Assembly: GCA_041747555.1 (NCBI GenBank)
Contig: JBGTEY010000013.1
Location: 16,814 to 80,813, forward strand
Reading direction: 5' to 3'
DNA from: Patescibacteria group bacterium
GTDB lineage: Bacteria; Patescibacteriota; Microgenomatia; UBA1400; PJMF01
Length of the DNA: 64,000 bases
Position 1 is the stretch's first letter, and each line of letters opens with the position of its first letter. The position numbers and the translations under genes were made by a program. The notes below the pieces were generated by a model that did no database searches, was not told the origin of the DNA, and was given only the letters and a program-made list of their open reading frames with translations. Positions 2,451-59,728 of this stretch are shown here, in pieces.

Positions 2451-2966
2451 TTATCGGGGCGTTGGGTTTTGGCTTCGAGCAATTGATTGATCATGGATTT
2501 CGAAGGATATTTGATAAGTTGGAGTAATTTGATCTTGATTTGGAATTAGAGACACATAGAAATACGCTGCGTACTGCGTGCCATCGGGCGTCGGGTGGGA
2601 ATACAGGTAGGGCGGAATGTCTGCAGTATAGTAACAATTTGTATTAGCGAGCGCGGTACCTGGTTCATTCTGTCTGAACTCGATGTTGAATCGTGAGGCT
2701 GACGGCATTTGAGGAACATACGCTTCTAAAAGCTGATCAATTGCTATTGTTTCTTGGGGTGAAAAAAGAAATTGCTGTTGGATACCGTCTGTGTGGACAA
2801 GCGCGAAGAGATCTGCAAGGAGCTGCTGCAGTGTGTGCTCATGACGCAAGAGATGTTCTGGGTGGGCAGCGGGAGGGGCTTTACGGGAAGGATCTGACTC
2901 TGGGGGCTCAGTAGGTTTGAGTCTTAATCGTGATTTCTTGGTGGCTATTTCAAGAGTTTGTATCAT
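2451..2966 (-). CDS. Hypothetical protein, tandem paralog family member 1
   Basis: C-terminal GTQYAAYFYVSLIP...YQISFEIHDQS aligns with the ORFs at 3029-3622 and 3742-4278. Confidence 0.45.
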   Translation of the reverse strand: MIQTLEIATKKSRLRLKPTEPPESDPSRKAPPAAHPEHLLRHEHTLQQLLADLFALVHTDGIQQQFLFSPQETIAIDQLLEAYVPQMPSASRFNIEFRQNEPGTALANTNCYYTADIPPYLYSHPTPDGTQYAAYFYVSLIPNQDQITPTYQISFEIHDQSIARSQNPTPR

Positions 2967-3028
2967 TGACAGTTTTTTGGTGCTGTATTATGAGTGTATC
3001 ATAGGTATTTTGTTATGGGTTGACTGGA

Positions 3029-3622
3029 TTATTTGCTTGGTGGTGCGGGATTTGTTCTCTTGAATCGTTCTCTCATTGTTGGCAAATGTTCGTGGATTTC
3101 AAAGGCGATAGTGTACTTACCTTTGTACTCTGGATCTGTAGTGTCTTTATTCTTAATGTTGCCCGGGGTGTGGATGATGTAAAAACGTGCTTCCCACTGA
3201 TATCCGTTATGATCTCTTGATGTGAGAATCGGGCTGGTGTCAGTAACGAGCACGCCTTCATTCTTCAATGAATTCACTGACCAACTAAACTGAAAATTAA
3301 CAAATTTTTTGTCTTCTCTCAGCTTTGCAACCATAGGCTCAAAGAGATTGTAGACAGGATCGATGTAGTCGGGAGAAAACCAGAGTTTGTGGCTAAATTT
3401 CTCATCGGTACAGAATGCGTCAATAGTGTCGACGAGGTAGTGGACGAATAGTTTGTTGAGTGTAAAGCGTTCTTGAGGACCAGATTCATTTGCAAAGTTA
3501 TCACTTAAAATTTTGAGTAGTGCATCAGGAGAGACGCCCATGGCTGCAGTGGCACGGATGGCTTCTACTTCAGGGTCGAGAATCGGTGTGGGGGTTGCTA
3601 TTGCTTCGTGTGTTTTTGCCAT
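3029..3622 (-). CDS. Hypothetical protein, tandem paralog family member 2
   Basis: GYQWEARFYIIHTP...YTIAFEIHEH tail. N-terminal PEVEAIRATA resembles PELEAIAITA in the next paralog. Confidence 0.45.
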   Translation of the reverse strand: MAKTHEAIATPTPILDPEVEAIRATAAMGVSPDALLKILSDNFANESGPQERFTLNKLFVHYLVDTIDAFCTDEKFSHKLWFSPDYIDPVYNLFEPMVAKLREDKKFVNFQFSWSVNSLKNEGVLVTDTSPILTSRDHNGYQWEARFYIIHTPGNIKNKDTTDPEYKGKYTIAFEIHEHLPTMRERFKRTNPAPPSK

Positions 3623-3741
3623 AGCTTAGATGCTATTTATTGTCTATAGTAATTATTATAGCATATTTATGATGATTGGAAGATTTTTGAACTAATTTGA
3701 CTTGTGTTGGTGTAATTTTATTCGTCAAAAACCGAAGCGAT

Positions 3742-4278
3742 TTACATCACTTCAAAATCGTGATCAAATTCATCGTTGGCATTGGGTTGAACAGTAGCAT
3801 CATCATCTGGTTCAACTTCTACAATAAAATAGGTAATTTCGTACTGAGCTTTTTGTGTAGCAGTGCCACGTTTAAAGACAATGAAAAATTGAGCTCGATA
3901 CTGAAAACCGTCTTTTGGCTTAGATCTAATGCTTATGCGAGTTTCGTTATTGAGAATAGTAAGTGGTGCCGTTTCTAGCTGAAATGCGTTCACTTTTTTG
4001 ACAACTCTTATTTCAAGGTTTTCTTCATCAACGCTGAGACCATGTGCGAGATTAGCCAGAATATTTCCTATTCGATTATCTAAGGTGTTAAATGAGATGA
4101 GATTATCGAAGGGAGTAAGTATTCTAGTTATTGAGTCCTGAATTTGTTCAGCTACCAGATAGTTGGGTGTAGCTCGTTTTTCGAGTTTGACGAGCTCTTT
4201 TAGGGCCGTTATTGCTATTGCTTCAAGTTCGGGAAATCTGGATGTGTCTAGGCCTTCGTGCTGTATTTCTTTGTTCAT
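3742..4278 (-). CDS. Hypothetical protein, tandem paralog family member 3
   Basis: GFQYRAQFFIVFKRG...YEITYFIVEVEP tail. Shared N-terminal motif with 3029-3622. Confidence 0.45.
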   Translation of the reverse strand: MNKEIQHEGLDTSRFPELEAIAITALKELVKLEKRATPNYLVAEQIQDSITRILTPFDNLISFNTLDNRIGNILANLAHGLSVDEENLEIRVVKKVNAFQLETAPLTILNNETRISIRSKPKDGFQYRAQFFIVFKRGTATQKAQYEITYFIVEVEPDDDATVQPNANDEFDHDFEVM

Positions 4279-4346: not shown

Positions 4347-5927
4347 CTACTCAATTATAATGTCAGGTTGCGTCTTAATCTTATACACCTGCACGCTCTC
4401 ACCCTCCCAAACGACCTCGTGGTCCCAGTTCCAGTATTGTTTGCCTTTCATTTCTCGGGCAAGCCAGTCTGAACCGCGGTTCATGTCGATGATGATCCAG
4501 TCTGCGTAGCGAGCGGGGCGGTCCAATGCTTCATCCCAGTATTTGCCGGCGCCTTCGTGGATGTAGGTGCGGTAGGGGAAACCCATGAGGAACATTTGGT
4601 CTTCGAAGCCGGAGGCGGAGATGAGGATTTTGCCGCCGTTGTAGTTTTGTTGCATGAAGTGGACTAAATCACTATCTGGTTTTGGATAAATTTGTCTAGG
4701 TATTTCATACATTGGAGAGAATTGAGGATTGAAGTGGTTTAACAATTGCACCGAGAACAGCATAAAGAAAAGAATGTTGAGGTATTTTATTTTGAAAACA
4801 TACACAGTAAGGAGAGCCACCCAGGGTAAAAGTAAGATTCCATAGCGAATATTAAAGCCAGTGCTCAAACTTGTATCCACAGAAAGGATATTGATAAAAG
4901 TTAAAAAAGGTTGAACAATCGGTGTATTTCTCTGCAAAGTCAGAACCATGACTAAGAAAATAGAGAGTGGTAAGCCGAGTACCAGAAATGTCAAGCTTTT
5001 CTTGCGAATTGACTCGATGCCTGCAAGAACGAAGCCAATGAGTGCTGTGCCCACGGGGATGATTCCGGACATCCAGGAGATGGAGGTGAAGTATTGCCAG
5101 ACTGCGGCGAGGAAGGGTTTGGCTTGGGAGTATCCTTGCACAACTCCATCACTAGTGACTTTTTCTGTAGCGTAATAGTTTATCCAAAAAAGAGGATCAT
5201 TAAATATTGCCGTCAAATAAAGTGTCCACAATGCAAATCCTAAACCTGCTACAAAAATGTAAAGTATTATATCTCCTTCAATTTTTCTCCAGTTTATCTT
5301 GTAGTGTTGAAAAGTTGATACTATAAGTACCAATAGAATAGACCCTAATAGATATGCTAAAGCTTCATAACGGATTAGGGTCAAAGAGGAGACTGCAAAT
5401 GCAGCATAAACTAAGTATCTACGCATTTTTGTGATTGTCCACTTGAGAAATCCATATGTACTCACAGAAAGAAGTGCAACAAAAATGGCTTCTGACATCG
5501 CTGTAGTTTGAAGGTAGAGCATGTTAATATTTAAAGCATAAACAGTGACAGATAGCAGTGATGCTACCTTATTTTTAGATAATAAAAATGCTGATTTGTA
5601 GAGAAAAAATCCTCCGACAATATATGACAACATAGACATTATTGCGCCAGCCATACCAGTTCTCCACATCCAGTCATTCCATATAAAAGGCAACATCAGT
5701 AGTTGAGGAAGTGGAAGCCAGACCGATCCTAGTTGGGCCATACCTGGGTTGAGGTTATCAATAAGTTTTCGTGATAAGTTGAGACGTGCTACTGCGTCAG
5801 CGTATGGGATATTCAGTCCAGTTTGAAAAAAGTGGTATGTCGCTATCAATGAACATGAAAATAATAATCCAAGAAGAACTATTTCGACAGTTATTACTTG
5901 ATTAAATTTATGAATCTGTCTTTTCAC
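4347..5927 (-). CDS. Putative GT-C fold membrane glycosyltransferase (PMT/ArnT-like), about 12 TM helices plus a C-terminal soluble domain
   Basis: Polytopic topology. N-terminal loop YADAVARLNLSRK...WLPLPQLLMLPF resembles the GT-C acidic loop region. The C-terminal roughly 100-aa domain is hydrophilic. Confidence 0.45.
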   Translation of the reverse strand: MKRQIHKFNQVITVEIVLLGLLFSCSLIATYHFFQTGLNIPYADAVARLNLSRKLIDNLNPGMAQLGSVWLPLPQLLMLPFIWNDWMWRTGMAGAIMSMLSYIVGGFFLYKSAFLLSKNKVASLLSVTVYALNINMLYLQTTAMSEAIFVALLSVSTYGFLKWTITKMRRYLVYAAFAVSSLTLIRYEALAYLLGSILLVLIVSTFQHYKINWRKIEGDIILYIFVAGLGFALWTLYLTAIFNDPLFWINYYATEKVTSDGVVQGYSQAKPFLAAVWQYFTSISWMSGIIPVGTALIGFVLAGIESIRKKSLTFLVLGLPLSIFLVMVLTLQRNTPIVQPFLTFINILSVDTSLSTGFNIRYGILLLPWVALLTVYVFKIKYLNILFFMLFSVQLLNHFNPQFSPMYEIPRQIYPKPDSDLVHFMQQNYNGGKILISASGFEDQMFLMGFPYRTYIHEGAGKYWDEALDRPARYADWIIIDMNRGSDWLAREMKGKQYWNWDHEVVWEGESVQVYKIKTQPDIIIE

Positions 5928-6042: not shown

Positions 6043-7008
6043 CTAGTATGTTTTGTTTCCTAACATTTTTGCGTAATGGCTTTTCTGACTCCATGCTTCA
6101 AAAAACTCTCTATTTTTACCATAATTATTATCAACTACAACATTTTTTTTGTGCAAAATTTCAGCTAAAATGTGTCCATGCAGCCGAGTTGTGAAGGTCG
6201 TATCGTACTTGCACAAAAAATTTACTGCTTCGTCAATTAAGGCTTGCCTATTATGCAATTTGACTAATCCGAACACATCATGCTTCTCTTTCCAATGTAA
6301 ACCAAAAAGTTTCAATACATGTAGTATCGCTATGTTGATAATTAACGCCACATTATGAGCAACTGAGGTTTTCCAATGATTTTCAAAACTAGGCCAATCT
6401 GAAACGTCTACGTGTCTTAATAGCTCCTGCAAGTGAATGTTATCTATGGAGCTCTCTTTGTCAGCTCGCTGGAGCAGAAGAACTTTCTTGGTAGGGGGAT
6501 TGTTGCAGCGTAATTTTCGAATTCCAAACGCAGCATCAGGTAAGCATAAAATTTTATTTTTACTAAAATGTTTCATAAAAATATCTAAGGACCTAAAATC
6601 ACGCGCACATAAGGTAAGGTTGTCATGCTTGGCATAAATGTTCGCACTTATTTCCAGTTGCCTTGCATCTTGGAAATGCACTGTCTGCGGTAACATCACA
6701 ATTTTATTATTTCTAAATTCCTCAGCAATCATTCTTCTAAACTCCTCGTGTTTAGGATATAGATCACCCATGTTCCCCCCCCCATGCATGAGGATGCAAT
6801 CATCTGCTTTTATTTTATTAGCGTTGAAAAAATACCGTGAAGATTCGTATCTAGGATATTTGTTTAGCGCCGCTAATAATTCTAGTTCACCTTGATAAAT
6901 GAGCTGGTCTCCAGAATTTGCGTGATTAGGTAGGTCGAGTAGAACAACTTCTCTATTGCCAATTTCTGTGTGGAGCGAATCTAGTAATAATTGTCGATAT
7001 TTATGCAT
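6043..7008 (-). CDS. Polysaccharide pyruvyl transferase-like protein (CsaB/WcaK family)
   Basis: N-terminal HANSGDQLI (N-x-GD motif) and GGGNMGD. Size about 320 aa. Embedded in a glycosyltransferase cluster. Confidence 0.45.
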   Translation of the reverse strand: MHKYRQLLLDSLHTEIGNREVVLLDLPNHANSGDQLIYQGELELLAALNKYPRYESSRYFFNANKIKADDCILMHGGGNMGDLYPKHEEFRRMIAEEFRNNKIVMLPQTVHFQDARQLEISANIYAKHDNLTLCARDFRSLDIFMKHFSKNKILCLPDAAFGIRKLRCNNPPTKKVLLLQRADKESSIDNIHLQELLRHVDVSDWPSFENHWKTSVAHNVALIINIAILHVLKLFGLHWKEKHDVFGLVKLHNRQALIDEAVNFLCKYDTTFTTRLHGHILAEILHKKNVVVDNNYGKNREFFEAWSQKSHYAKMLGNKTY

Positions 7009-7023
7009 TATTTAATATGTATT

Positions 7024-7845
7024 CTATTTATACCCGCGAATAACTCTTCGATAAAAATTTGATAATTTAGTAGAGACTGTTTTTGGAATAAGTAGTCTTA
7101 GATTCCAGAGGAAAATTCCAATCCACGCTTTTGGGTATTCTGATTTATACTTCAGCACAATTGTTATACTATTTTGAATCTGCTGTTTTTTATTTTTTTG
7201 ACTAATACCTTCATTGGAGTATCTATACTGGACCATGGAAAGTGGAATGTTTGCAATTTTTCCGATTTTCCCCATCCTCAACCAAAGATCGTAGTCTTCA
7301 GCAAATTTTAAATCTTCAGAGTAGGCGCCCAATTCCATTGCAGCTTTCTTACGAAAAAGCACTGAGCTATGAACAAAGCAATTTTCAATGAGAATATATT
7401 TACGGATCTCATCATCATCAGTAGGGTATGTAAGATTATCAATTATTTTTCCAGATTCATCAATTCTTTGTGCAAACGTACCTACAAGTATATGATTCTT
7501 ATTCTTTATTAAAAACTGTACTTGTTTTGATAATTTGTTTTTATCATTCCAGATGTCGTCACCATCTATTCTTGCGATCAAACTACCATTTGCAGATTTT
7601 AATCCAATGTTAAGGGATTTAACGATACCTTGGTTTTCTTTATTCAATATGTATTTAACTTTTGAATTATTTTCTATAGTTTTATTAATAAGCTCATTCG
7701 AGTTATCAGTGGATGCATCATCAATGATTATCAATTCCCAATTTTCATACGATTGCGACAGTACACTTTCGAGTGATTTAACAATATGTGAAGCATCGTT
7801 ATAAGTAGGTAGGAGTATTGAGACTAGAGGTTTTTGCGAGTTCAT
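7024..7845 (-). CDS. Family 2 glycosyltransferase
   Basis: VSILLPTYNDASHIVKSLESVLSQSYENWELIIIDDASTDNS is a canonical GT2 N-terminus, with DGDD further on. Confidence 0.8.
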   Translation of the reverse strand: MNSQKPLVSILLPTYNDASHIVKSLESVLSQSYENWELIIIDDASTDNSNELINKTIENNSKVKYILNKENQGIVKSLNIGLKSANGSLIARIDGDDIWNDKNKLSKQVQFLIKNKNHILVGTFAQRIDESGKIIDNLTYPTDDDEIRKYILIENCFVHSSVLFRKKAAMELGAYSEDLKFAEDYDLWLRMGKIGKIANIPLSMVQYRYSNEGISQKNKKQQIQNSITIVLKYKSEYPKAWIGIFLWNLRLLIPKTVSTKLSNFYRRVIRGYK

Positions 7846-7858
7846 GGCTAGAGTTTTT

Positions 7859-8743
7859 CTAAAATTTCTTTGTTGATTTAGCAATATCCCAAATATACGG
7901 ATTCACTTTTTTCACACGAATATCAAAGCGACCAATGAGATTTACCAGTATTTCCACAGAAATTGCACCAAATAACCAAATAAGTTCCTTAAAGCCTCCT
8001 ATTTGGAAATCAAAAAGTAGCAATCGAACCGTTGATTTGGTCATATTGTCAATTTTAATCTCCTCCTCTTGATGCAACCTACAATGCCCATTAAAAATCC
8101 TCCGCCGCTGCATAACAATATCACCCAAAGACTCCGCCCCTTTATTCCACACCTTCGCCTCATCAACATGCACAATTTTGTATCCCAACTGCACCATCTT
8201 CGCCTGGATAAACGCCTCATCCACCGCCGTGGTCACCGAAATCTCTGGCAACACATTCCGATAGGCAATAATCTCCCCAAATCGGGGAATATTCCGATGA
8301 AACCACCACCACGTGTGCACCACATACCCCAGGAACGTATTCTTATCGTTCACTGGATGCGGCGCACCACCGGTCATACCGATTTTTTTATCTTTTAGGA
8401 ATGGCAAACACAATAATTCAATGGTATCAGGCTCACAAATCGTGTCTGTACTCTGAATCACAACCACTTCATGATCAACCACCTTGAGAAATGAATTGAT
8501 CGCAGAGGCTTTGCCTAACCGTTCCTTTTGCTTGATAAGCGAAATTCTAGAATCCTTGGCAATAAATGACTTAACAATCTCATTGGTCCCATCAGTCGAG
8601 GCAGAGGAGACCACGATAATCTTATCAATCACAATCCTATCAGTCTTCTGGGCCAGGAGACTCTCAAGCAACTTCCCAATATTCGCCTCCTCATTATAGG
8701 CAGGCAAACACAGAGCGACTGAAAGTTTTTGTGTGTTCGGCAT
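7859..8743 (-). CDS. Family 2 glycosyltransferase
   Basis: LCLPAYNEEANIGKLLESLLAQ...VVSSASTDGT GT2 signature. Confidence 0.8.
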   Translation of the reverse strand: MPNTQKLSVALCLPAYNEEANIGKLLESLLAQKTDRIVIDKIIVVSSASTDGTNEIVKSFIAKDSRISLIKQKERLGKASAINSFLKVVDHEVVVIQSTDTICEPDTIELLCLPFLKDKKIGMTGGAPHPVNDKNTFLGYVVHTWWWFHRNIPRFGEIIAYRNVLPEISVTTAVDEAFIQAKMVQLGYKIVHVDEAKVWNKGAESLGDIVMQRRRIFNGHCRLHQEEEIKIDNMTKSTVRLLLFDFQIGGFKELIWLFGAISVEILVNLIGRFDIRVKKVNPYIWDIAKSTKKF

Positions 8744-8758
8744 GAAAAATCCCACTCT

Positions 8759-11263
8759 TTATAAATTCAGTCGCCTCAACACAACCGTCCCATCCTCATC
8801 AATATTCCCATCCAAAGACATTTTCTTCACTGAGTGCCCATAGCCATTTGCCAGGCCATTGTTGCCAGCTCGCTTCAGTTCAAAATCATGACCAGATACC
8901 ATCTCGTGTTCTTCGGTACCTGGGTTTTTCATCGACTTCATACTCAAATCCACCCACTCATCCGCTCCCATCGCCTTGGGGTACCGACTATCCGGCTCAT
9001 CATAATCACTAATATCTCGCGCCACAGCCGGTACATCTCCTACATCCACCACATCCCCACTCACACCATACGAAGTAATTGACCGCCCAACCACGCCACT
9101 CGCATGCGCCAATGCTTTTTCATTATCCAGATGAAATCCATGCTTGGTCTTGGCCCAATAATGCGGCGCCACGATCAAGCTCCACACTGCCTTCCATGCC
9201 GCCACACTCATCATCAGCCAGTAGAACGGCACCAAAAACACATATTTAATAATCTCATCATGCCCCCGTTTGGCACAGCCAATCATGTAGTAGTACATGT
9301 ACAAGAAATTGCCAAAAACCAGACACGTCAGCGCCATATAAAACACCGCCGCCGGAAAGAACGGCTCAATCGCAGGCCCCAATGTAGACCGAAATACAAA
9401 GTACAAAATCGTCGTCGCCCACATAATCGGGTTAATAAACATACTCATCACCTTGCCACCAACCACCAGCTGAAAGGTCAACACATGCGGCTCACTCCAG
9501 CTGCGCAAGAACTCACGAGGGTTTCTCATGTGCACCAAGTAGGTCTGGATATAGCCCTTAATCCAGCGACTTCTCTGACTAAACCAATTAAAGAAATCAC
9601 TATTTGCTTCTTCGTTGGTAATCGAGTCCACAATGGCAGTCCTCAAGCCCCGTTTGACCATCCTGATGCCAAGGTCACAGTCTTCGGTCACGTTAAATGA
9701 ATCCCAGCCGTGCAACTCCTTGAGAATGCTGGTCTTAAAATGATTGCTCGTCCCACCCAACGGGATTGGCGCATGAATTGCCTGTAACCCCGTGAGCACC
9801 AAGTCAAACCACAGCGAATACTCTGCAGTAAAGACTCTGGTTAGCAAATTCTGATGCGGATTATAAAAATTGAGCTTCGCCTGCATGCAGACGACTTCTT
9901 TAGGGACTTTGTCAAATGCGAGGACGACTTTTTTGAGCTGGTCGGGCTCTGGGACATCTTCTGCGTCGTAGATCACCACATAATCGCTCTCAATTCTGTG
10001 CAGGGCGTAGTTACATGCCTTGGGCTTGGTCTTGGGGAAGGAATCGGGCACTACCATCACTTCAAAATGTGAGGGGAGTGCGAATTCTTTGACTTTTTGG
10101 AGCGTTTCGGTGTCGTCTTCCTCGAGCAAAAGATATACCTTGAGCTTGTCCTTGGGGTACTCCATCTGATCCATGCTGGTTACAAATTGGGGGATGACCT
10201 GCCATTCCTTATAGAGCGGGCAGAGAATTGCGTAGGTGGGGAGGTCTTTGTCCTCGAGTGCAGTAACTTTTTTGGGCTCGATCTTGATTTCTGGTGAATG
10301 AATAAAACTTTGGACAATGAGGAGCAAATTAAAGAGTAAGTCTACAAAATACAGGACAGTCAGCACTGCAATAAGTATTAAAAGAGTTGTTCTCCAGCTC
10401 GTGATCAGAAAAAATGCCAAAAACGCAACTAAGGCAACCAAAAAAAACGACTGCTTGCGGCTGAGTCTGGTAAACGCGCTCTCTGCATGAGGAAGCGGCG
10501 TGTGGTGGATGTACTTCTTGGAGCGATGGTGAAACCCGTGTCCGACTGATTCAATTTCTGTGGGATGAAATGGGATAATTCTGCGGTAGTGGGTGAGGAG
10601 CAATAGTGCTTGCCAGCTTAACTGGAGTGAAGCGTGGATGAGGTTGGTTTTGTGTTTACCATATTTTCTGGGCTGGAGTGCCACGTCGATTGATTCAATC
10701 ACGGCGCCCGCGTTGCGTGCATTCACTAGGAATTCAAGGTCAAAGGTCCATTGACTGGGATTGAGTTGAAGTCGCTCATATATGTTTTTGCGAAAAACTT
10801 TCATCCCTGATTGCACATCAACGGTAAAACCGTGCAGCGTTTTGCCAAACAATACCCTAAAGAGTGTTGCCAAGACCTTGCGATGGGCATCAACATTGAG
10901 TTCAAAGCGATTTGCAACCACAATATCGGCGCCCGCATCGAGTTTCTTGACCATTTTTTCAAAATTCTCTGGGGAGTATTGGAGATCCCCGTCAATCATG
11001 CCGATATAGTCGTACTGTGCTGCGGCAAAGCCTTCGATCAGTGACTGACCCTTACCTCGATTACCTGTTTTTTTGAGTAATTTGACTGCAGGAGAAGGAA
11101 AAGCTTTTACTCTATCTGGTGTGCCATCATCTGATCCATCATCGATGACCAAAATTTCAAATGTTGGGGTTATTTTTTCACATACAGCGACCGTACGTTC
11201 AAGCAAAATTGTGATACTTTTTGCTTCATTAAGGGTGGGAATGATGATAGAAATGCCTCTCAT
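8759..11263 (-). CDS. Bifunctional membrane glycosyltransferase: N-terminal Dpm1-like GT2 plus C-terminal processive GT2 synthase domain (QxxRW)
   Basis: Domain 1 is ISIIIPTLNEA...VIDDGSDDGT. A TM block follows. Domain 2 is AILCPLYKE...DAEDVPEPDQL...TEDCDLGIRM...QRSRWIKGY (D, D, TED and QxxRW motifs of cellulose/hyaluronan-synthase-like enzymes). More TM helices and an acidic roughly 130-aa tail follow. Start chosen at MRGISIII (11263). Confidence 0.75.
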   Translation of the reverse strand: MRGISIIIPTLNEAKSITILLERTVAVCEKITPTFEILVIDDGSDDGTPDRVKAFPSPAVKLLKKTGNRGKGQSLIEGFAAAQYDYIGMIDGDLQYSPENFEKMVKKLDAGADIVVANRFELNVDAHRKVLATLFRVLFGKTLHGFTVDVQSGMKVFRKNIYERLQLNPSQWTFDLEFLVNARNAGAVIESIDVALQPRKYGKHKTNLIHASLQLSWQALLLLTHYRRIIPFHPTEIESVGHGFHHRSKKYIHHTPLPHAESAFTRLSRKQSFFLVALVAFLAFFLITSWRTTLLILIAVLTVLYFVDLLFNLLLIVQSFIHSPEIKIEPKKVTALEDKDLPTYAILCPLYKEWQVIPQFVTSMDQMEYPKDKLKVYLLLEEDDTETLQKVKEFALPSHFEVMVVPDSFPKTKPKACNYALHRIESDYVVIYDAEDVPEPDQLKKVVLAFDKVPKEVVCMQAKLNFYNPHQNLLTRVFTAEYSLWFDLVLTGLQAIHAPIPLGGTSNHFKTSILKELHGWDSFNVTEDCDLGIRMVKRGLRTAIVDSITNEEANSDFFNWFSQRSRWIKGYIQTYLVHMRNPREFLRSWSEPHVLTFQLVVGGKVMSMFINPIMWATTILYFVFRSTLGPAIEPFFPAAVFYMALTCLVFGNFLYMYYYMIGCAKRGHDEIIKYVFLVPFYWLMMSVAAWKAVWSLIVAPHYWAKTKHGFHLDNEKALAHASGVVGRSITSYGVSGDVVDVGDVPAVARDISDYDEPDSRYPKAMGADEWVDLSMKSMKNPGTEEHEMVSGHDFELKRAGNNGLANGYGHSVKKMSLDGNIDEDGTVVLRRLNL

Positions 11264-11334
11264 GAACCCTTCATTATAGCAATTATAGTGATGCCTGTCG
11301 CTCGAAATAATTAGGGGTGTTATACTAAATAGAT
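11264..11334. promoter_or_regulatory. Divergent promoter region between the GT fusion gene and sppA, with repeated ATTATAG elements
   Basis: 71-nt AT-rich spacer. TATAAT present on the minus strand (revcomp of ATTATA) twice, 9 nt apart. Confidence 0.25.
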
Positions 11335-12444
11335 ATGCAACAAAAATCACACCTACTTGTCAGGGCCATGAAACATTTTTTTAGAGTATTCCTGAGTGTT
11401 AACGCCGTAATTATTGGTATATTTTCTAGTTTGGCAGTGATTGGAATTATGTCAGCGATGGTTTCTGATGACACAGCCGTTTCTGGCACGAGCTCAATTT
11501 CAGAAGACTATCGTGTCTTGGTTGGTGAAGACGATGCCGAACATCAATTTGCGTCAATTGCACTTGATGGAATTATTTTAGGTGACAGAAGTGAATTTGA
11601 GCAGATTTTTGAGGCATTTGCCTCTGGTGGAGTCACCTTTGGGTATGATGTCAAAGATGAGCTCTATGAACTCGCCGATGCCGATGAAGTCGCAGGAATT
11701 GTCTTAGAAATCAATTCTCCCGGAGGAACAATCTTTGGCACCCAAGCAATTGTTGATGGCGTTACCTATTATCGACAACAGACCAACAAACCTGTGGTTG
11801 CATATATAGGCAGCATTGCCGCATCTGGTGGATACTGGGCTGCGGTGAGTGCTGATGAGATTATTGCTGATGCTGGTACAACCATTGGTAGCATCGGTGT
11901 CATTACTGGACCTATTAAATTTTATGACGGCGTGGTGAGTGAGGATGGCGGCGCATTTATTGGAGGAATCGAAACCACCGGTGGCGTCCAGACAACATTT
12001 TTCACCGCAGGAGAGGGTAAAGATATGGGTAATCCCTACCGACCAATGACCGATCGTGAGCGACAAGTCTTGCAAGGGGCTGTAGATAGTAGTCATAGCA
12101 CGTTTGTCGATTATGTTTCAGAGCGTCGCGCTGTTGATCGAGCGACCGTTACCCAAATGTGGGGTGGATATATTTATAACGACATTCAAGCTACCCAACT
12201 AGGAATGGTTGATAACCGAGGCTCAAAGGATGCCGCCTACAACATCGTTGCAGAGCGTGCAGGTGTTGCTATCGATGACTCCTCCATCATTAGATACAGA
12301 TCAGGTGGTGGATTTTTTGATCAGTTATTTGGTGTGGTGAGTGATGCGCAGACTGAGCTTAAGGCTGGGCGCGTGTCTGGTGGGTGTTTGTATAGCCAAC
12401 ATGTGATGGCGTATCACGGGGATTTGGCTGGGTTGTGTTTTTAG
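11335..12444 (+). CDS. sppA: Signal peptide peptidase SppA (S49 family, 36K type)
   Basis: EINSPGGTIFG and GSIAASGGYWAAVSADEIIADAGTTIGSIGV match the SppA Ser/Lys dyad region. N-terminal TM anchor. Confidence 0.7.
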   Translation: MQQKSHLLVRAMKHFFRVFLSVNAVIIGIFSSLAVIGIMSAMVSDDTAVSGTSSISEDYRVLVGEDDAEHQFASIALDGIILGDRSEFEQIFEAFASGGVTFGYDVKDELYELADADEVAGIVLEINSPGGTIFGTQAIVDGVTYYRQQTNKPVVAYIGSIAASGGYWAAVSADEIIADAGTTIGSIGVITGPIKFYDGVVSEDGGAFIGGIETTGGVQTTFFTAGEGKDMGNPYRPMTDRERQVLQGAVDSSHSTFVDYVSERRAVDRATVTQMWGGYIYNDIQATQLGMVDNRGSKDAAYNIVAERAGVAIDDSSIIRYRSGGGFFDQLFGVVSDAQTELKAGRVSGGCLYSQHVMAYHGDLAGLCF

Positions 12445-12475
12445 GGTAGGATTATTTGTATATAATTGAAATTCT

Positions 12476-12898
12476 ATGATAGAACAAAATGAGCCATCAC
12501 CCAAAGAAGAAAACGGTGAACATCCACTAAAACTTGATGAATTTCAAGGTCTTTTAGATGTTTGGAAAAAGAGTAAAGAGGCAGGAGCTCGGGCCGTATC
12601 AGATTTTCTAGATGAACTAGATGATGCGCTTAAAGAAGTGCATGAGCAAGGTAGGCAATACCTGATAATGGGAACAATAATCAGTACGGCATCGAATTTA
12701 ATGTTTCCTAATCTCATGACCTCAGACTCTAGCTTTGCTACAGTGGCGATGTGGCTGGGGCTCAATGTGGTTGGTTCAGCTGTCGCACTAAAGATTAAAA
12801 ATAAAATAACTCAAGAAATAGCGAGGTACAAAGAAGAAGTTGCTTCGGGCCGAAGTTTTGATTCTACACATCAATATCAATCTGAGGATGAAGTATGA
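12476..12898 (+). CDS. Hypothetical protein
   Basis: ORF with one hydrophobic segment. Translationally coupled (ATGA overlap) to the next ORF. Confidence 0.3.
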   Translation: MIEQNEPSPKEENGEHPLKLDEFQGLLDVWKKSKEAGARAVSDFLDELDDALKEVHEQGRQYLIMGTIISTASNLMFPNLMTSDSSFATVAMWLGLNVVGSAVALKIKNKITQEIARYKEEVASGRSFDSTHQYQSEDEV

Positions 12899-13284
12899 CT
12901 GATCCAATTAAGGAACTATCCAATCTGGAGCATGTAGTCCTCGGTCCCTTACTCATCGCAACTGGCATGAGTGATGATGAGCAAGTCATTGTCAAAAAAC
13001 AGTTATTGCTCGTTATAGTGGCTCAATCAATCCAAAAGGTGGAGCAAGCTCTTTCAGAAGAAGAGAAAGAATCACTTCTCAACGAGTTATCTCAACTGGA
13101 TCCACAAAGTCAATTGGATCACCTTGCGAGCTTTATTTCCCAGAACGAAATTTCTCAACAGCTTTTATCTGAGTATTATCAAAAAGACTTACCCCAACTA
13201 CTAAAACGCTTACTGCTAAAATTCATGAATAGCGCCACCGATGAACAAAAACAGAGATTTCTTAAAGCTTCAGAGGCTGTTTAA
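12895..13284 (+). CDS. Hypothetical acidic helical protein
   Basis: ORF only. Coupled to the upstream ORF. Confidence 0.3.
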   Translation: MTDPIKELSNLEHVVLGPLLIATGMSDDEQVIVKKQLLLVIVAQSIQKVEQALSEEEKESLLNELSQLDPQSQLDHLASFISQNEISQQLLSEYYQKDLPQLLKRLLLKFMNSATDEQKQRFLKASEAV

Positions 13285-13285
13285 G

Positions 13286-14188
13286 CTAAATAATTTTGTG
13301 CTTAGTAAGAAGTTTGAAAATAGAAACAGTCCTCTGCGCAAATTCCTCATCCTCCAGAGGTACCGACCATAATTTATCCAAAAAAGAACTTCGTTGATAC
13401 TCGATGACCACGTATCTTAGTTTGCTATTGAGTACTGATGCAAGCTCACTCCACATGTCTTCGGTTATCATTTCGACTGGCAAAGAATCATGACTGTTGG
13501 TGCCAAGCGAAATATGGACAATGCACGGGCCAAGTGCGTCTAATTTTTGCAGCATTTCATGCCAGTGTTTGGATGGATTGATCAATGAATTTGGTTTTTC
13601 TAGTAAGTAGTGTACGATGTCAAAAACGGGAACGCACGGGATGCCTGCTTTTGTCAGTGTTTCGACTGCTTCACGGGTAACTTCATATGATTCTTCGAAT
13701 GGATTATTTTCTATTGCGAGTGGGCAGGGCAGGGCAGTGGGCAACTGATTGTTCTGAAAAACTGATCGTGCTTCTGTTTCGTGAATAAGAAAATAATGCG
13801 GTTTGCTATCTTGAGCAAGTGACAATCTTTGTAATGCTTTGGGCGTTGATTGCAAAAGTATGGTAAAGCCAATTGTGAGCAATCGAATAGGATTGAACCA
13901 AGAAAGATCGGGATCAATGCCAGTTCTACCGTGAAATCCGGCTACGGGGACAGCGTCTGAACTGCCAAGCTCATCCCATGGAGCGACAAATCTCCAGAGG
14001 AGGACTTCTATACCTGGCATCTGACTCTTTTCTCTTCCCTCGCCAACTTCTTTAAAAATGTATTGCCAAAATTCTCGTGCATCGTACCAATCGCCAAAAA
14101 CTCCCACCACATCGGTGGAAATACCCGATCCGTAGCTATTTTTGAGTGCTGTTATAAATTGTTCCGGATTAAAGTTGGTAGGAGGCAT
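13286..14188 (-). CDS. Hypothetical protein
   Basis: 300-aa ORF with no recognisable motif by eye. Confidence 0.3.
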   Translation of the reverse strand: MPPTNFNPEQFITALKNSYGSGISTDVVGVFGDWYDAREFWQYIFKEVGEGREKSQMPGIEVLLWRFVAPWDELGSSDAVPVAGFHGRTGIDPDLSWFNPIRLLTIGFTILLQSTPKALQRLSLAQDSKPHYFLIHETEARSVFQNNQLPTALPCPLAIENNPFEESYEVTREAVETLTKAGIPCVPVFDIVHYLLEKPNSLINPSKHWHEMLQKLDALGPCIVHISLGTNSHDSLPVEMITEDMWSELASVLNSKLRYVVIEYQRSSFLDKLWSVPLEDEEFAQRTVSIFKLLTKHKII

Positions 14189-14285
14189 AGCTGTATTTTT
14201 AAAAAAAATGACCTGTGTGTAAGCGATTTGTAGGATTTAAAAGGTATTGTAGCAAAAGTAACAGATAATAAAGAAAGGAGACAAG

Positions 14286-14855
14286 ATGTATAGCAAGAAA
14301 AAACTGCTTATCTCTGGTCTTTTTGTACTTCTGCTCGGGCTGACCCTTGGGGCAGGTGCAGTAGTCGCGTATTTTTCTAGTGTCGGTCAGACGGATTTCA
14401 ATACAATTCAAACAGGACGGCTTGACATGCTGGTTGGTCAAACAGATGCACTCCAAGAAGAGCATTGGCTGCCTGGTGAGTCACAAATCATTGAGTGGTC
14501 AGTACTCAATACGGGCAATATAGATTCATATCTCAAGGGAAAACTCGATGTAACCTGGGATGTAGAAGGTCTCGAGACAGAAAAAATTATCATAGATTCA
14601 GTCGAATATATGGATGCTGGTGTGTGGTATCCACTCACGAGTGGCACAATTTCACCCGGTGATGAATTTTTATACAGTGCAGATGGCACAGAAGGTGGTC
14701 TAATCTCATTCCCTCAGGCGAAAGAAGTGCTATTTAGAATGACCGTCACGCTCGATCCCACGGTGGAAAATGAGTATCAAAATGCAGGATTCTCTGGTCA
14801 AGTAAAAATGGCTGGCAGACAACAAACAGAGGGAGCTGTGTGGGGAAGTTTATAG
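14286..14855 (+). CDS. TasA/camelysin-family secreted protein with SipW-cognate-class signal peptide
   Basis: N-terminus MYSKKKLL...LGAGAVVAYFSSVGQTDFNTIQTGRLDM parallels B. cereus CalY/TasA MSLKKKLG...GGGTFAFFSDKEVSNNTFAAGTLDL. Middle LPGESQIIEWSVLNTGNIDS resembles LKPGDSVKKEFLLQNSGSL. C-terminal ...FSGQVKMAGRQ resembles ...LNLEWTFNANQ. Confidence 0.6.
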   Translation: MYSKKKLLISGLFVLLLGLTLGAGAVVAYFSSVGQTDFNTIQTGRLDMLVGQTDALQEEHWLPGESQIIEWSVLNTGNIDSYLKGKLDVTWDVEGLETEKIIIDSVEYMDAGVWYPLTSGTISPGDEFLYSADGTEGGLISFPQAKEVLFRMTVTLDPTVENEYQNAGFSGQVKMAGRQQTEGAVWGSL

Positions 14856-15646
14856 GAATAAGTATTTGTATGGGGCTGTTGATGTTTCACTCAGCAGCCC
14901 CTGCCAGAGCCTTTTTCACAACCATTGGTGAATTTACTCATCACTTTACTATCATTGAGTCAACAATTGTGTCAGTAGAAGCACCGTTTGAAAAAGAAAT
15001 TACTTCAATAAAACCAGACCAGTCTCTTTCACTCTGCTATCAATTCATCAGCGAAAGTGACGACCCTGGATTTGATGAACCAGCTATGACTGTGAAACTA
15101 TCAGAAAAAATCATATATGAGACAAGTTTTTCTGCAGATAAAAAATGTATTCAAATGCAGCTCGATCAAGGATACAACGTAATTCAAATATCGGTGCATG
15201 ACACCATAGATACTCAAAATTCACCTCAGGTGGTACTTTCAGATTTTGAGGTTAGCGCAACCGCTGCGTTGCCTTCACAGATGCTTCTAGTTTTTGATAG
15301 TATCGTGGAGCAAATCACCAGAAGTGATGACTCGACACTAGTAAGTTTTAAACTTGCGGTGCCTATGGATTCTGAATTAGTTGACATCAGTACTAATTAC
15401 TCACTGGCACTCTATGAGATAACATCATCGATTTCAGATGAAACAATCATTACCACAAACGTTCCAATTGGATTGAACATTTCGGCAGAGCCAGATCATC
15501 CTGTATTAATTTCCCCACACCAACCACTCTGGAATACATTTTTAGGCCAAAAATTTGTTGATAGTCGATTTCCAAATCATAGTATTAGTTTTGTGACTGC
15601 TCGAATTCCTCATGGTCACTGGTTTGCTCAAATTCATGAGGAATAA
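14840..15646 (+). CDS. Secreted hypothetical protein, possible second SipW-type substrate or minor subunit
   Basis: Signal peptide followed by ARAFFTTIGEFTHHF (resembles the A-Y-F-S-D...F motif). Overlaps the TasA-like gene by 16 nt. Confidence 0.35.
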   Translation: MGKFIGISICMGLLMFHSAAPARAFFTTIGEFTHHFTIIESTIVSVEAPFEKEITSIKPDQSLSLCYQFISESDDPGFDEPAMTVKLSEKIIYETSFSADKKCIQMQLDQGYNVIQISVHDTIDTQNSPQVVLSDFEVSATAALPSQMLLVFDSIVEQITRSDDSTLVSFKLAVPMDSELVDISTNYSLALYEITSSISDETIITTNVPIGLNISAEPDHPVLISPHQPLWNTFLGQKFVDSRFPNHSISFVTARIPHGHWFAQIHEE

Positions 15647-15791
15647 ACAATTCTCAGCTAGCTAACCCTTGAGTTTACTAGGGTTTGTAGTGCATACTTG
15701 GGACTACATGAAATTATTTGAAACGATCGCGCATCTCTTCCACCCTCGTCGGTCGAATAATCATCGACCCAAAGTCCTGCACCCAGAGGCA

Positions 15792-16760
15792 ATGGCATAC
15801 ATGGTTGGAATAATCGTCGCACTTTCATTTTTTATTCAATTTGCGCCGAGGCAAAACGCACTTTCAAACGTCTTGGGCTACTCATCAGATATAACGGTCG
15901 ATAAAGTGCTGTCTCAAACCAACCAAATCAGAGGACAAGGCAGCCTCAAGTCGTTGCAGTACAGTGATCGATTATCACAAGCAGCGGTCGCCAAAGGTCA
16001 AGACATGTTTGCCAATCAATACTGGGCACACACATCCCCTTCTGGCAGAGAACCATGGGATTTTATTCGCGCTGTTGGATATGGTTATCGAGTTGCGGGT
16101 GAAAATTTAGCTCGAGATTTTGACACCACAGATACCATGATGCAGGCATGGATGGCGTCACCAACGCACCGTGAAAACATCATGCACCCAAGATACCAAG
16201 AAATAGGTATCGCAGTCATCGACGGAACACTCAATGGAGTCGAAACTACACTGGTCGTGCAAATGTTTGGCCTCCCCATAACTACTCAAGTAGCTGAGGT
16301 TCCAGACAGTAACGTCTTTGGTGTTAACCAAGCTCAAGCTGCAGAACCAAGCGAATTCGAGCCAGCAGATCAGGTGGTGATCACTGAAGCAAATTCAGCA
16401 CGGGAAGTTGTTCCAGATGAAGCTGCTGGAAATGAACAACCACAGGCCAGCACCATCCCAGATCCTGAACCAACACTGAGCCCAACATCAGGCGACTCCA
16501 ATCTAGCGACACCAGTAGAACCCCTCATTGCAAGGCCCAGGCACTCTCTGGGAATCTTCCCACAGTTTTCTCCCCTCATGCTCACTAAAGCTGGAGTTAT
16601 TGCAGTCACTTTACTACTCCTTGGAACACTACTATATGATGCTATGATCATTGCTAATAGAAAAACAGAGCGATTTGTGGGTAAAAATTTAGCACATATT
16701 ATCTTGTTTTCCATGGTTTTATTTCTGCTAATTGTTATTAAGGGAGGAGCGATAGCATAA
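15792..16760 (+). CDS. CAP/SCP/PR-1 domain secreted protein with Pro/Glu-rich linker and C-terminal TM anchor
   Basis: YWAHTSPSG...GENLARDF...MQAWMASPTHRENIMHPRYQEIGIAV are the CAP-domain signature blocks. The C-terminal hydrophobic stretch is IAVTLLLLGTLLY. ATG at 15792 is preferred over the TTG at 15669. Confidence 0.6.
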   Translation: MAYMVGIIVALSFFIQFAPRQNALSNVLGYSSDITVDKVLSQTNQIRGQGSLKSLQYSDRLSQAAVAKGQDMFANQYWAHTSPSGREPWDFIRAVGYGYRVAGENLARDFDTTDTMMQAWMASPTHRENIMHPRYQEIGIAVIDGTLNGVETTLVVQMFGLPITTQVAEVPDSNVFGVNQAQAAEPSEFEPADQVVITEANSAREVVPDEAAGNEQPQASTIPDPEPTLSPTSGDSNLATPVEPLIARPRHSLGIFPQFSPLMLTKAGVIAVTLLLLGTLLYDAMIIANRKTERFVGKNLAHIILFSMVLFLLIVIKGGAIA

Positions 16761-35752: not shown

Positions 35753-36910
35753 ATGAAACACGCCGTTGTCATCATTCCAACTTATAACGAGCGAGAGAAC
35801 ATTCAGGTAGTTATTCCTGCCCTTCATGACGTTTTTTCAGGCATTTCCAGCTGGAAGATGTCTATATTGGTCGTAGATGATACTTCACCTGATAAAACCT
35901 ATGAGGTGGTGGAAGAACTTTCCAAGAAATACCCCTTCGTTCACCTACTAAAAAATAAGCAAAAGTCAGGTCTTGGTGGCGCGTATCTCAAAGGTATGGC
36001 AGAAGCCTTCGGAGCTCTTGATGCAGACGTTATCTTCGAGTTTGACGCCGATCTCTCACACGACCCAACCAAGATCCCTCAATTTTTAGCAGCTGTTGAT
36101 GCTGGGGCTGATATGGTGCTTGGATCTCGTTATATTCCTGGTGGTAGTATCCCAAAAAATTGGGGGCTCCATCGCAAATTCTTTAGTGTGGTAGGTAATA
36201 TAGTTATCGCACTTGTTTTGACCAACTTCTCAATTAGAGATTGGACTACAGGATTCCGCGCGATCACTAAAAAAGTCTATGACGCAGTGCATCCATCACT
36301 CCATACGGAACAATTTTCTGGGTATACGTTTCAAATTGGTTTTCTCCACGCCGCAGTCAAAAATAAATTTAATATAACAGAGGTGCCATTTCATTTTGCA
36401 GATCGAACCATTGGGCATTCTAAGTTGGGCCCTGAATACATCAAAAATACACTCCTCTACATTATTAGAGTCAGATTGCAGGATGTGTACGCGAGTAGAG
36501 TATTTAAGTTTGCAGTGGTGGGTGGTGTTGGTGCGCTTATTCAACTTTCAAGCTTGCAGCTGTGGAGACTCATCGTGCCATTCCAACTTGCATTTTTTCT
36601 TTCCATAGAAACAGCTATTATTTCTAACTTTATTCTCAATAATACATGGACATTTTCTGATCATCAGTTAGCACTAGCTGATTTTCCTAAGAAGTTTTTG
36701 CAATTTAACTTTACCTCTGGAGGGTCAATCATTATTCAACAATTGGTGGCTATCTTTGGCGAGTTGTTTGTGGGTCTCATCACCTTATTTACCATTCCAT
36801 TTCTCAATTTTCCGTTTGATACTGGCACGCTCTATGCAATTATTGGGATTTTACTTGGCATGACCTGGAATTTCTTTGCTTACACCAAATTTATTTGGAA
36901 GACTGCCTAG
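35753..36910 (+). CDS. Polyprenol-phosphate sugar synthase (GtrB/Dpm1-like GT2) fused to a C-terminal GtrA-like 4-TM domain
   Basis: VVIIPTYNERENI...VVDDTSPDKT GT2 motifs, then 4 C-terminal TM helices typical of GtrA-family proteins. Confidence 0.75.
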   Translation: MKHAVVIIPTYNERENIQVVIPALHDVFSGISSWKMSILVVDDTSPDKTYEVVEELSKKYPFVHLLKNKQKSGLGGAYLKGMAEAFGALDADVIFEFDADLSHDPTKIPQFLAAVDAGADMVLGSRYIPGGSIPKNWGLHRKFFSVVGNIVIALVLTNFSIRDWTTGFRAITKKVYDAVHPSLHTEQFSGYTFQIGFLHAAVKNKFNITEVPFHFADRTIGHSKLGPEYIKNTLLYIIRVRLQDVYASRVFKFAVVGGVGALIQLSSLQLWRLIVPFQLAFFLSIETAIISNFILNNTWTFSDHQLALADFPKKFLQFNFTSGGSIIIQQLVAIFGELFVGLITLFTIPFLNFPFDTGTLYAIIGILLGMTWNFFAYTKFIWKTA

Positions 36911-36914
36911 TATC

Positions 36915-38498: not shown

Positions 38499-38531
38499 AG
38501 ACAACCTATCGAGCTTGAGGTAATATAGTGT

Positions 38532-59704: not shown

Positions 59705-59728
59705 TTTATAGTATCACGAATACCAATG

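Follow-up and report, generated by a model that had tools for sequence, protein, structure and literature searches.

The stretch of DNA analyzed here, 64,000 nucleotides of a Patescibacteria group bacterium (contig JBGTEY010000013.1, positions 16,814 to 80,813; hereafter the window), encodes a single protein of 834 residues in which two family 2 glycosyltransferase (GT2) domains are joined, and it raises the question of whether this union is genuine and what kind of glycan machinery such a protein would serve. An earlier note, made from the sequence alone, had described a Dpm1/GtrB-type domain coupled to a processive synthase domain, had called the combination uncommon, and had suggested a self-contained polymer export machine. 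The domain types and the reality of the fusion withstand our analysis; "uncommon" and "self-contained" do not. We divide the system into module N (the first GT2 domain), module C (the synthase-like half, residues ~227–700), and module G, a membrane glycosyltransferase of the GT-C fold encoded four genes downstream. In our best reading, which we infer from the evidence set out below, the fusion would be the core of a three-module surface-glycan machine rather than a stand-alone exporter.

The longest form of the open reading frame (ORF) spans 8759–11350 on the minus strand and begins with GTG, giving 863 residues, and the ATG at 11263 gives 834. We rejected the GTG start because the N termini of homologs match the ATG, with the consensus xxxxISIIIPTxNE in an alignment of 68 homologs, and because the extension overlaps the divergently transcribed gene for an SppA (S49) peptidase at 11335–12444. 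A frameshift or assembly artifact that joins two genes was rejected as well. The identical protein is found both in the 274,772-base NCBI contig and in an independent Logan assembly of run SRR28170463, both domains are present in all 120 of the best homolog clusters (53–83% identity, mostly 730–760 residues), and 41 single ORFs of the fetched loci hold both domains. These ORFs were taken from stop to stop and their modules assigned with hidden Markov models (HMMs). The N–C fusion occurs in at least 120 protein clusters and in ~40 species-level genomes, almost all of them Patescibacteria (Microgenomates, Levybacteria, Woesebacteria, Roizmanbacteria, Saccharimonadales, and others). The organism names of relatives are those of database records, and several look wrong ("uncultured Gammaproteobacteria" and "Bdellovibrionales" are automatic and doubtful labels). 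At the level of the databases, then, the fusion is not uncommon; it is the standard form of the gene across many Patescibacteria.

The neighborhood of the gene speaks against a protein that works by itself. A scan of one genome per GTDB species returned at least 600 candidate stretches, 594 of which encode a relative; the synteny counts refer to the best 80 of these at least 594 loci, picked by similarity and no unbiased census. Roughly half of the 80 are fused, and the other half lack the N domain. Among the loci with enough flanking sequence to be informative, 63 of 67 have a GT-C homolog downstream in the same orientation (30 of 33 where the gene is fused, 33 of 34 where it is not), and in ~30 of these the gap between the synthase-like gene and the GT-C gene is less than 350 nucleotides, which makes the two directly adjacent. 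With a GT-C enzyme adjoining or fused to the synthase-like half in nearly every informative locus, the proposal of a self-contained export machine is unsupported. Genes for GT4 and GT2 enzymes, PIG-L and polysaccharide deacetylases, sortases, and dTDP-rhamnose enzymes are likewise enriched among the neighbors. One Saccharimonadales metagenome-assembled genome (MAG) carries three fused transferases in tandem, one of them inverted, and two are each followed by a GT-C gene of their own (L006, ~6179–16611), an arrangement that suggests diversification of surface glycans.

The three modules are also fused to one another in pairs. In Chloroflexota, modules C and G form single polypeptides of ~990–1470 residues with GT2 and PMT_2 domains, both in five fetched loci (L060 at 9794–12784, L061, L062, L063, and L065) and in at least 120 protein clusters (P0241–P0360; Chloroflexota, Ktedonobacteraceae), and this form, too, appears undescribed. 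Modules C and G are the minimal unit in that phylum, with no other transferase nearby in most loci; in L062, a Ktedonobacterales MAG, an N-type gene lies just upstream of the C–G fusion. A protein of 1100 residues from a Candidatus Nephthysia (Dormibacterota) MAG has a Dpm1-like domain N-terminal to the GT-C enzyme (L059, 11470–14772), and its gene directly follows an unfused synthase-like gene. Pairwise fusion of three modules in different lineages is a classic signature of a shared pathway or complex. The N–C junction falls near residue 226, and unfused proteins begin at the equivalent of residues 228–260, keeping the conserved segment and the transmembrane (TM) hairpin that precede the second catalytic domain; for this reason we assign the hairpin to the synthase-like module, of which it forms the N-terminal part. 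In a rough neighbor-joining tree of the synthase-like half, nonpatescibacterial sequences are unfused and basal. Within Patescibacteria the two forms are intermingled, which indicates repeated gain or loss of the N domain.

Table 1. Features of the bifunctional glycosyltransferase and its operon; positions are those of the window, and residues are those of the 834-residue protein.
Feature	Residues	Window position	Strand	Basis
Whole 834-aa bifunctional membrane glycosyltransferase		8759..11263, stop codon included	(-)	ORF list, translation, exact copy in two assemblies
Module N: Dpm1/ArnC/GtrB-like GT2 catalytic domain, DGD 91-93, without TM anchor of its own	1-226	10586..11263	(-)	Pfam, PDB, Foldseek
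Pre-membrane segment IPFHP...GxGFH...ESAF and two-helix TM hairpin	227-321	10301..10585	(-)	Hydropathy, AlphaFold2
BcsA/HAS-like GT2 catalytic domain	322-590	9494..10300	(-)	Pfam, BcsA alignment, Foldseek
Three long hydrophobic helices, candidate glycan channel or groove	591-698	9170..9493	(-)	AlphaFold2, invariant columns
Conserved PHxWxKTKHG motif (700-709), then lineage-specific, disordered, mildly acidic tail	699-834	8762..9169	(-)	pLDDT, charge
Operon gene 2: soluble or monotopic GT2, 298 aa		7859..8755	(-)	Pfam
Operon gene 3: GT2, 286 aa, nearest EpsE/TuaG/WcaA-type		7024..7884	(-)	Pfam, NCBIfam
Operon gene 4: polysaccharide pyruvyl transferase		6043..7008	(-)	PF04230, 7.4e-26
Operon gene 5 (module G): 526-aa GT-C-fold membrane glycosyltransferase, divergent PMT_2		4347..5927	(-)	Homologs, AlphaFold2/Foldseek, synteny

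Module N resembles the polyprenyl-phosphate glycosyltransferases over its whole length. Pfam places Glycos_transf_2 (PF00535) on residues 5–164 (E = 4e-43 for the whole protein), and a phmmer search of the PDB returns ArnC (6e-18, residues 2–210), the Pyrococcus furiosus DPMS (3.5e-17, residues 4–218), and GtrB (4.5e-10). In Foldseek, these same three structures superpose with a root-mean-square deviation (rmsd) of 2.7–3.5 Å over 221–240 columns at 24–26% identity, with TM-scores of 0.55–0.61 normalized to the target. The best NCBIfam families are AglJ (2.5e-25) and ArnC (7e-24); all of these scores fall far below the equivalog cut-offs, and no sugar specificity can therefore be assigned. Compared with the canonical polyprenyl-phosphate glycosyltransferase of the same window (35753–36910), module N is 28% identical over 224 residues (E = 8e-20). 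Eight of its residues are invariant in the family alignment of 68 homologs (D42, D91, D93, R119, D149, K155, D175, and R199), and its DGD aligns with the DAD of ArnC. Module N thus shares with Dpm1/DPMS, ArnC, GtrB, AglJ, PpgS, and CsbB the GT-A fold, the DGDLQY motif (DADLQN in ArnC), and the DxQSG(M/L)K segment, and it differs from them in that it has neither C-terminal TM helices of its own nor a GtrA-like domain and is tethered by the fusion instead. An anchor of this kind is not universal among such enzymes, given that human DPM1 and Mt-Ppm1/D2 also lack TM helices. By motif and fold, module N is of the GT2 polyprenyl-phosphate glycosyltransferase type, and it is predicted to transfer a sugar to polyprenyl phosphate.

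The second catalytic domain belongs with the membrane-embedded synthases. Glyco_tranf_2_3 (PF13641) matches residues 342–570 (7e-35) and Glyco_trans_2_3 (PF13632) residues 428–623 (6e-23), and the motifs EEDD (381–384), KPKACN (413–418), YDAED (432–436), TED (526–528), and QRSRW (563–567) follow in order. The TED marks the start of the finger helix, and QRSRW lies in the interface helix. An HMMER alignment pairs these motifs column for column with Rhodobacter sphaeroides BcsA (LLLEEDD with LCDDG, KPKACN with HAKAGN, YDAEDVP with FDADHVP, VTEDCD with ITEDAE, and QRSRW with QRGRW), and all of the motif residues are invariant among the 68 homologs. Foldseek matches include BcsA, the hyaluronan synthases (HAS) XlHAS1 of Xenopus and CvHAS of a Chlorella virus, and PcManGT (6yv7), a minimal cellulose-synthase-like mannosyltransferase; normalized to the target, the TM-score is 0.4–0.54 for BcsA and HAS and 0.68 for PcManGT, which is among the best structural matches. 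The NCBIfam equivalogs CelA, PgaC, NodC, EpsU, and the XrtG-associated family score 46–98 bits against cut-offs of 364–700 bits. Several homologs carry the automatic KEGG-style IMG label XagB, which reflects the similarity of the C-terminal half to the PgaC-like synthases of Xanthomonas xagABC; XagB itself is poorly characterized.

An AlphaFold2 model of the whole protein, built on the 68-sequence alignment, has a mean predicted local distance difference test score (pLDDT) of 80.2 and a predicted TM-score (pTM) of 0.77. It shows two plus three TM helices, amphipathic helices at 473–495 and 557–578, and the finger helix at 527–537. The hairpin (residues 269–321) consists of helices 269–288 and 290–321, and after the second catalytic domain come helices 593–635, 638–665, and 672–698. 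These last three helices carry invariant polar and aromatic residues (K604, N611, W615, T618, Y621, N652, Y655, Y681, W682, and S686), giving the membrane part the look of a groove or channel that binds sugar, with the channel function itself putative. As in BcsA, class I HAS, PgaC/IcaA, NodC, and chitin synthase, the signature motifs are present, and in the model the catalytic domain sits between TM helices together with interface and finger helices; unlike those synthases, the protein has just two plus three TM helices and no PilZ domain or BcsB/PgaD-like partner, and a conserved GT-C partner is found in their place. The tail (residues 701–834) contains 22 acidic (D + E) and 15 basic (K + R) residues for a net charge of −7, and pLDDT is below 50 for residues 710–834. 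It is restricted to the closest relatives, P0002 (83% identity, 100% query coverage) and P0003 (70%, 92%); query coverage does not exceed ~91% in any other homolog, and in the fetched loci tblastn with the tail as query found matches only in the same contig. In its general layout, the protein is as the earlier note described it: the ORF list and Pfam confirm one ORF with two GT2 domains, the PDB and Foldseek matches confirm the type of the first, two helices make up the TM block between them, the D, D, TED, and QRSRW motifs are in register with BcsA, the suggested structural comparison of the C-terminal half with BcsA and HAS finds the same fold, and further helices and a tail of ~130 residues follow, the latter mildly acidic and predicted to be disordered.

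Both halves are probably active, given that neither varies in its catalytic motifs among the 68 homologs (52–83% identity). Two active GT2 domains in one chain could in principle form a self-contained copolymerase, whether by alternating in the manner of K4CP or class II HAS or by using the lipid-linked sugar of module N as a direct monomer for module C. The retained motifs would suit such an enzyme, and the Foldseek match with the best E-value (4e-16) is K4CP, likewise an enzyme with two GT2 domains. That match has a TM-score of only 0.2–0.3 and an rmsd of ~19 Å, however, and reflects nothing beyond the presence of two GT-A domains. Module N is closest to polyprenyl-phosphate transferases over its whole length, about half of the orthologs lack it, and the conserved, often fused GT-C partner contradicts lone action. 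The active sites of BcsA-type enzymes bind nucleotide sugars, not lipid-phosphate sugars. We consider a copolymerase very improbable. Since BcsA/HAS-type synthases use nucleotide sugars, the product of module N is also less likely to feed the synthase half than to serve as donor for the GT-C enzyme.

That enzyme, module G, was identified by fold comparison only. The 526-residue protein has no Pfam match of its own, although 39 of 54 homologs match PMT_2 (PF13231), and a sequence-profile search of the PDB with its alignment gave no match. Its AlphaFold2 model has a pLDDT of 89.9, and the top 35 Foldseek matches in the PDB are all GT-C fold proteins: STT3, ALG12, ALG9, ALG3, DPY19, ArnT, PglB, GPI mannosyltransferase I, Pmt1/2/4, AftB, and EmbA/B/C, with 3 of the 35 being PIGU, a GPI-transamidase subunit that has the same fold but is no transferase. 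In the loop after the first TM helix, the first to face outward, R48, R53, and D57 are invariant and D44 is nearly so. Enzymes of the GT-C class work on the outer side of the membrane with polyprenyl-phosphate-linked donors, which are the product of Dpm1-type enzymes. One GT-C homolog carries a C-terminal GH5 cellulase-like domain (PF00150, 1e-13; L058, 12200–14839), as does P0137, which hints that the acceptor or product is a β-glycan. Directly upstream of the GT-C gene, many patescibacterial loci encode a polytopic protein of ~500–530 residues that has no Pfam match and is absent from the window (among others L014, 17447–19024; L033, 18144–19676; L022, 11563–13098); it may be a second GT-C-like enzyme.

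Taken together, the modules suggest a division of labor that we favor tentatively: module C would export a glycan, module N would make a lipid-phosphate sugar donor, and module G would join the two outside the cell. Module C, as a membrane GT2 of the BcsA/HAS/PgaC type, would use a nucleotide sugar at the cytoplasmic face to make a β-linked glycan, be it a polymer, an oligomer, or a glycolipid head group, and would export it by way of its five TM helices, either through them or along them. Module N, having lost its own anchor, would be held at the membrane by module C and would charge polyprenyl (undecaprenyl) phosphate with a sugar. This lipid-linked sugar would then be flipped, for which the Wzx-type domain fused in larger relatives is a candidate flippase, and module G would use it to glycosylate the product of module C outside the membrane; here, the two soluble GT2 enzymes of the operon may lengthen the donor beforehand, and it may also be pyruvylated. 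BcsA, HAS, and NodC self-prime from nucleotide sugar, and module C probably does the same, because the C + G unit lacks a nearby transferase in most Chloroflexota loci. The substrates, the processivity, the direction of flow (the roles of the two products as donor or acceptor), and the flippase are the parts of this scheme that we infer.

We prefer this scheme because it fits the logic of three-component glycosylation, has a precedent in Ppm1, and accommodates a C + G core that has no priming enzyme nearby. A polyprenyl-phosphate glycosyltransferase, a flippase, and a GT-C enzyme constitute the established three-component logic of extracytoplasmic glycosylation (PMC13390465). As in GtrA/GtrB/GtrC, ArnC/ArnT, and CsbB/GtcA/YfhO (PMC13390465), the polyprenyl-phosphate glycosyltransferase and the GT-C enzyme are encoded together here, with a flippase module in relatives. 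Unlike in those systems, a synthase-type GT2 is integral and the more conserved component, and the flippase is of the Wzx type rather than the GtrA type where present, and absent from the operon. Wzx-like AglR has been implicated in the flipping of Dol-P-mannose (PMC3871713). In Mycobacterium tuberculosis Ppm1 (Rv2051c), and in Ppm1/Ppm2 of Mycobacterium smegmatis and Corynebacterium glutamicum, a Dpm1-type domain without TM helices is likewise fused to or interacts with a polytopic membrane enzyme (PMC3485146). That membrane enzyme is unrelated; the two are fused in some species and encoded by adjacent genes for interacting proteins in others, and the product feeds GT-C transferases (PMC3485146). 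The arrangement differs in that an Lnt-like acyltransferase domain lies N-terminal to the catalytic domain of Ppm1, whereas in our protein a synthase-like GT2 lies C-terminal to it.

The mycobacterial parallel can also be read another way. Module C could glycosylate a membrane lipid such as diacylglycerol, perhaps with a few sugars, and module G could then elongate this anchor outside with the lipid-phosphate sugar of module N, as the mycobacterial Mpt and Emb enzymes build lipomannan from the polyprenyl-phosphate mannose made by Ppm1. The logic of lipomannan and lipoarabinomannan is alike, in that their GT-C enzymes depend on the polyprenyl-phosphate mannose of Ppm1 (PMC3485146). AftB and the Emb arabinosyltransferases are among the structural matches of module G, the hosts are monoderm-like (Patescibacteria, Chloroflexota, and Actinomycetota), and module C scores with GT21, the ceramide glucosyltransferase family (PF13506, 2e-10), and with HpnI. 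Both of the latter matches are weak, however (24 bits against a cut-off of 310 for HpnI); module C is closest to polymer synthases (BcsA, HAS, CelA, and PgaC) rather than to lipid glycosyltransferases, and the locus indicates no particular lipid acceptor. Such a lipoglycan route strikes us as quite unlikely.

The fusion gene is the first of a tightly spaced operon (Table 1). The product of gene 2 has orthologs at 55–63% identity in the closest loci (L011, L027, L034, and L036; tblastn). Gene 3 is nearest to EpsE (3.9e-42) and TuaG (1.5e-34) in NCBIfam, all below the family cut-offs, and EpsE/TuaG/WcaA-type enzymes act on lipid-linked repeat units. NCBIfam gave no match for the GT-C protein, the pyruvyl transferase, or three small soluble ORFs (178, 197, and 171 residues) that lie just downstream of the GT-C gene on the minus strand (2451–4278). 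The C-terminal halves of these three are alike by eye (...Y.W.A.F(Y/F)I...Y.I.FEI.E...), and Pfam gave no match for them either. On the Logan contig, a gene for a large serine recombinase (Resolvase/Recombinase/Zn_ribbon_recom; L001, 19806–20822) lies close to where the region of the glycan operon ends, just past the low-coordinate end of the window.

In some relatives, further steps are part of the same polypeptide. Megaproteins of ~1570–1620 residues (L014 at 9986–14686, L020, L024, L030, and L033) combine a Dpm1-like GT2, a synthase-like GT2, a Wzx-type region of 12–14 TM helices, and a GT4 domain, and two proteins of 1333 residues (L048 and L051) lack the Dpm1-like GT2 but are otherwise arranged in this order. 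The Wzx-type region matches PF01943 with 42.9 bits in L030, above the gathering score, and more weakly in L024, L033, and L014. Together with the GT4 domain it occupies the position of the tail. Neither the Wzx-like region of relatives nor the 500-residue multi-TM protein that many loci encode ahead of the GT-C gene gave a match when compared with the window by tblastn.

Several observations weigh against the division of labor that we favor. Modules N and C would act in parallel rather than consecutively, which is a less usual reason for fusion. Pfam finds neither GtrA nor Wzx among the operon genes, and flippase candidates are present only elsewhere in the window, with a Wzx gene 50 kb away (61447–62943). 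Three helices after the second catalytic domain would place the tail outside, yet the positive KTKH cluster follows the last helix. The processivity of module C would follow from its motifs only, and QxxRW and TED alone do not tell processivity, being common to nonprocessive enzymes; the nonprocessive archaeal PcManGT is among the best structural matches. Finally, the soluble GT2 enzymes and the pyruvyl transferase need a cytoplasmic lipid-linked acceptor, and for these the alternative in which the glycan is primed and extended on lipid fits at least as well.

In that alternative, undecaprenyl phosphate would receive its first sugar from module N, as dolichyl phosphate does from archaeal AglJ. 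The glycan, linked to lipid monophosphate, would be extended by the soluble GT2 enzymes, the pyruvyl transferase, and module C, with module C adding one or a few sugars or polymerizing processively in the manner of WbbF on a lipid-linked primer; the TM region of module C, or the Wzx domain of relatives, would move it outward. Module G would act as an oligosaccharyltransferase or ligase of the AglB/WaaL type, transferring the glycan en bloc onto protein, peptidoglycan, or lipid. AglJ is indeed the best specific NCBIfam match of module N, the EpsE/TuaG/WcaA-like enzymes and pyruvyl transferases of the operon normally work on lipid-linked intermediates, the Wzx-type region and GT4 are fused into the same polypeptide in relatives, and consecutive action makes the N–C fusion natural. 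STT3 oligosaccharyltransferases are among the top Foldseek matches of module G, although rank within the GT-C fold is weak evidence.

Precedents for the single steps exist as well. In Haloferax volcanii, AglJ, AglG, AglI, and AglE assemble four sugars on dolichyl monophosphate, and this tetrasaccharide is flipped and transferred by the GT-C enzyme AglB (PMC3871713). The Agl system as a whole (AglJ, AglG/I/E, AglR, AglB, and AglD/AglS) thus offers Dpm1-like priming, GT2 extension, a Wzx-like flip, and a GT-C finish (PMC3871713), with the differences that it is archaeal, dolichol-based, and composed of separate proteins, and includes no BcsA-like synthase. AepG is a Dpm1-like enzyme in exopolysaccharide synthesis (PMC9943897). 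In Salmonella O:54 (WbbE/WbbF and WaaL), the HAS/BcsA-like synthase WbbF is thought to polymerize and export a lipid-linked O-antigen, which a polytopic ligase transfers (PMC6286764); there, the primer is pyrophosphate-linked and made by WecA, and neither a Dpm1-like domain nor a fusion is found.

Other evidence runs counter to priming and extension. The known bacterial pairs of Dpm1-type and GT-C enzymes move single sugars, and transfer en bloc uses pyrophosphate-linked donors made by phosphoglycosyl transferases. The Chloroflexota C–G unit has no priming enzyme nearby, and the N domain has been gained and lost repeatedly in Patescibacteria while modules C and G stay, so it looks accessory rather than an obligatory first step. 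TED and QxxRW indicate a sugar acceptor and say nothing of lipid linkage. We therefore regard this alternative as rather unlikely, if the most serious competitor to the scheme in which modules C and N supply acceptor and donor to module G. Its boldest form, that the N–C fusion and its GT-C partner represent an unrecognized fourth bacterial route to surface glycans in which module N primes, module C elongates and translocates on a lipid-monophosphate primer, and the GT-C enzyme ligates the chain en bloc to the wall or to surface proteins, we hold to be unlikely.

Elsewhere in the window, two regions on the plus strand encode related functions. At 59684–62943, a PTPS_related polytopic membrane protein (59684–61450) is followed by a Wzx-type flippase (61447–62943; Polysacc_synt_3, E = 3e-46), which is a candidate for the flippase missing from the operon. 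At 35753–42186 lies a second, canonical lipid-carrier glycosylation cluster. Its members are a GT2 with a GtrA/DPMS TM domain (35753–36910), a weakly PMT_2-like GT-C protein (36876–38498), an 11-TM protein weakly like mycobacterial α-1,6-mannosyltransferase (39314–40615), and a PMT/GT39-like GT-C protein (40546–42186).

All of these parts belong to known superfamilies. Their combination, with a synthase-type GT2 constantly accompanied by a GT-C enzyme and a Dpm1-type domain fused to it in Patescibacteria, appears to be undescribed; a full-text literature search found no paper on an N–C or C–G fusion, although absence there is no proof. The family links three pathways that are normally separate, namely synthase-dependent export, lipid-carrier sugar donors, and GT-C transfer outside the membrane, and its pairwise fusions in different phyla predict a physical complex, which is testable. 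Since the core also occurs in culturable Actinomycetota and Chloroflexota, experiments are feasible; one culturable carrier of the C + G unit is Paraconexibacter sp. AEG42_29 (NZ_CP114014.1, 5.39–5.42 Mb).

Patescibacteria (also known as the candidate phyla radiation, CPR) account for a substantial part of bacterial diversity. Almost nothing is known of the chemistry of their envelopes, and many live as epibionts that attach to their hosts through the cell surface. In this setting, a gene family that is present in many tiny genomes, sometimes in several tandem copies, gains in interest. Should the synthase-like half act on a lipid-linked primer, it would define a new route of bacterial glycan assembly. 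If the fourth-route reading were true, bacteria would have an equivalent of the Dol-P-based glycosylation of archaea. It might then serve Patescibacteria, and many Chloroflexota as well, as the principal pathway for envelope polymers; in the latter, synthase and ligase would be one polypeptide.

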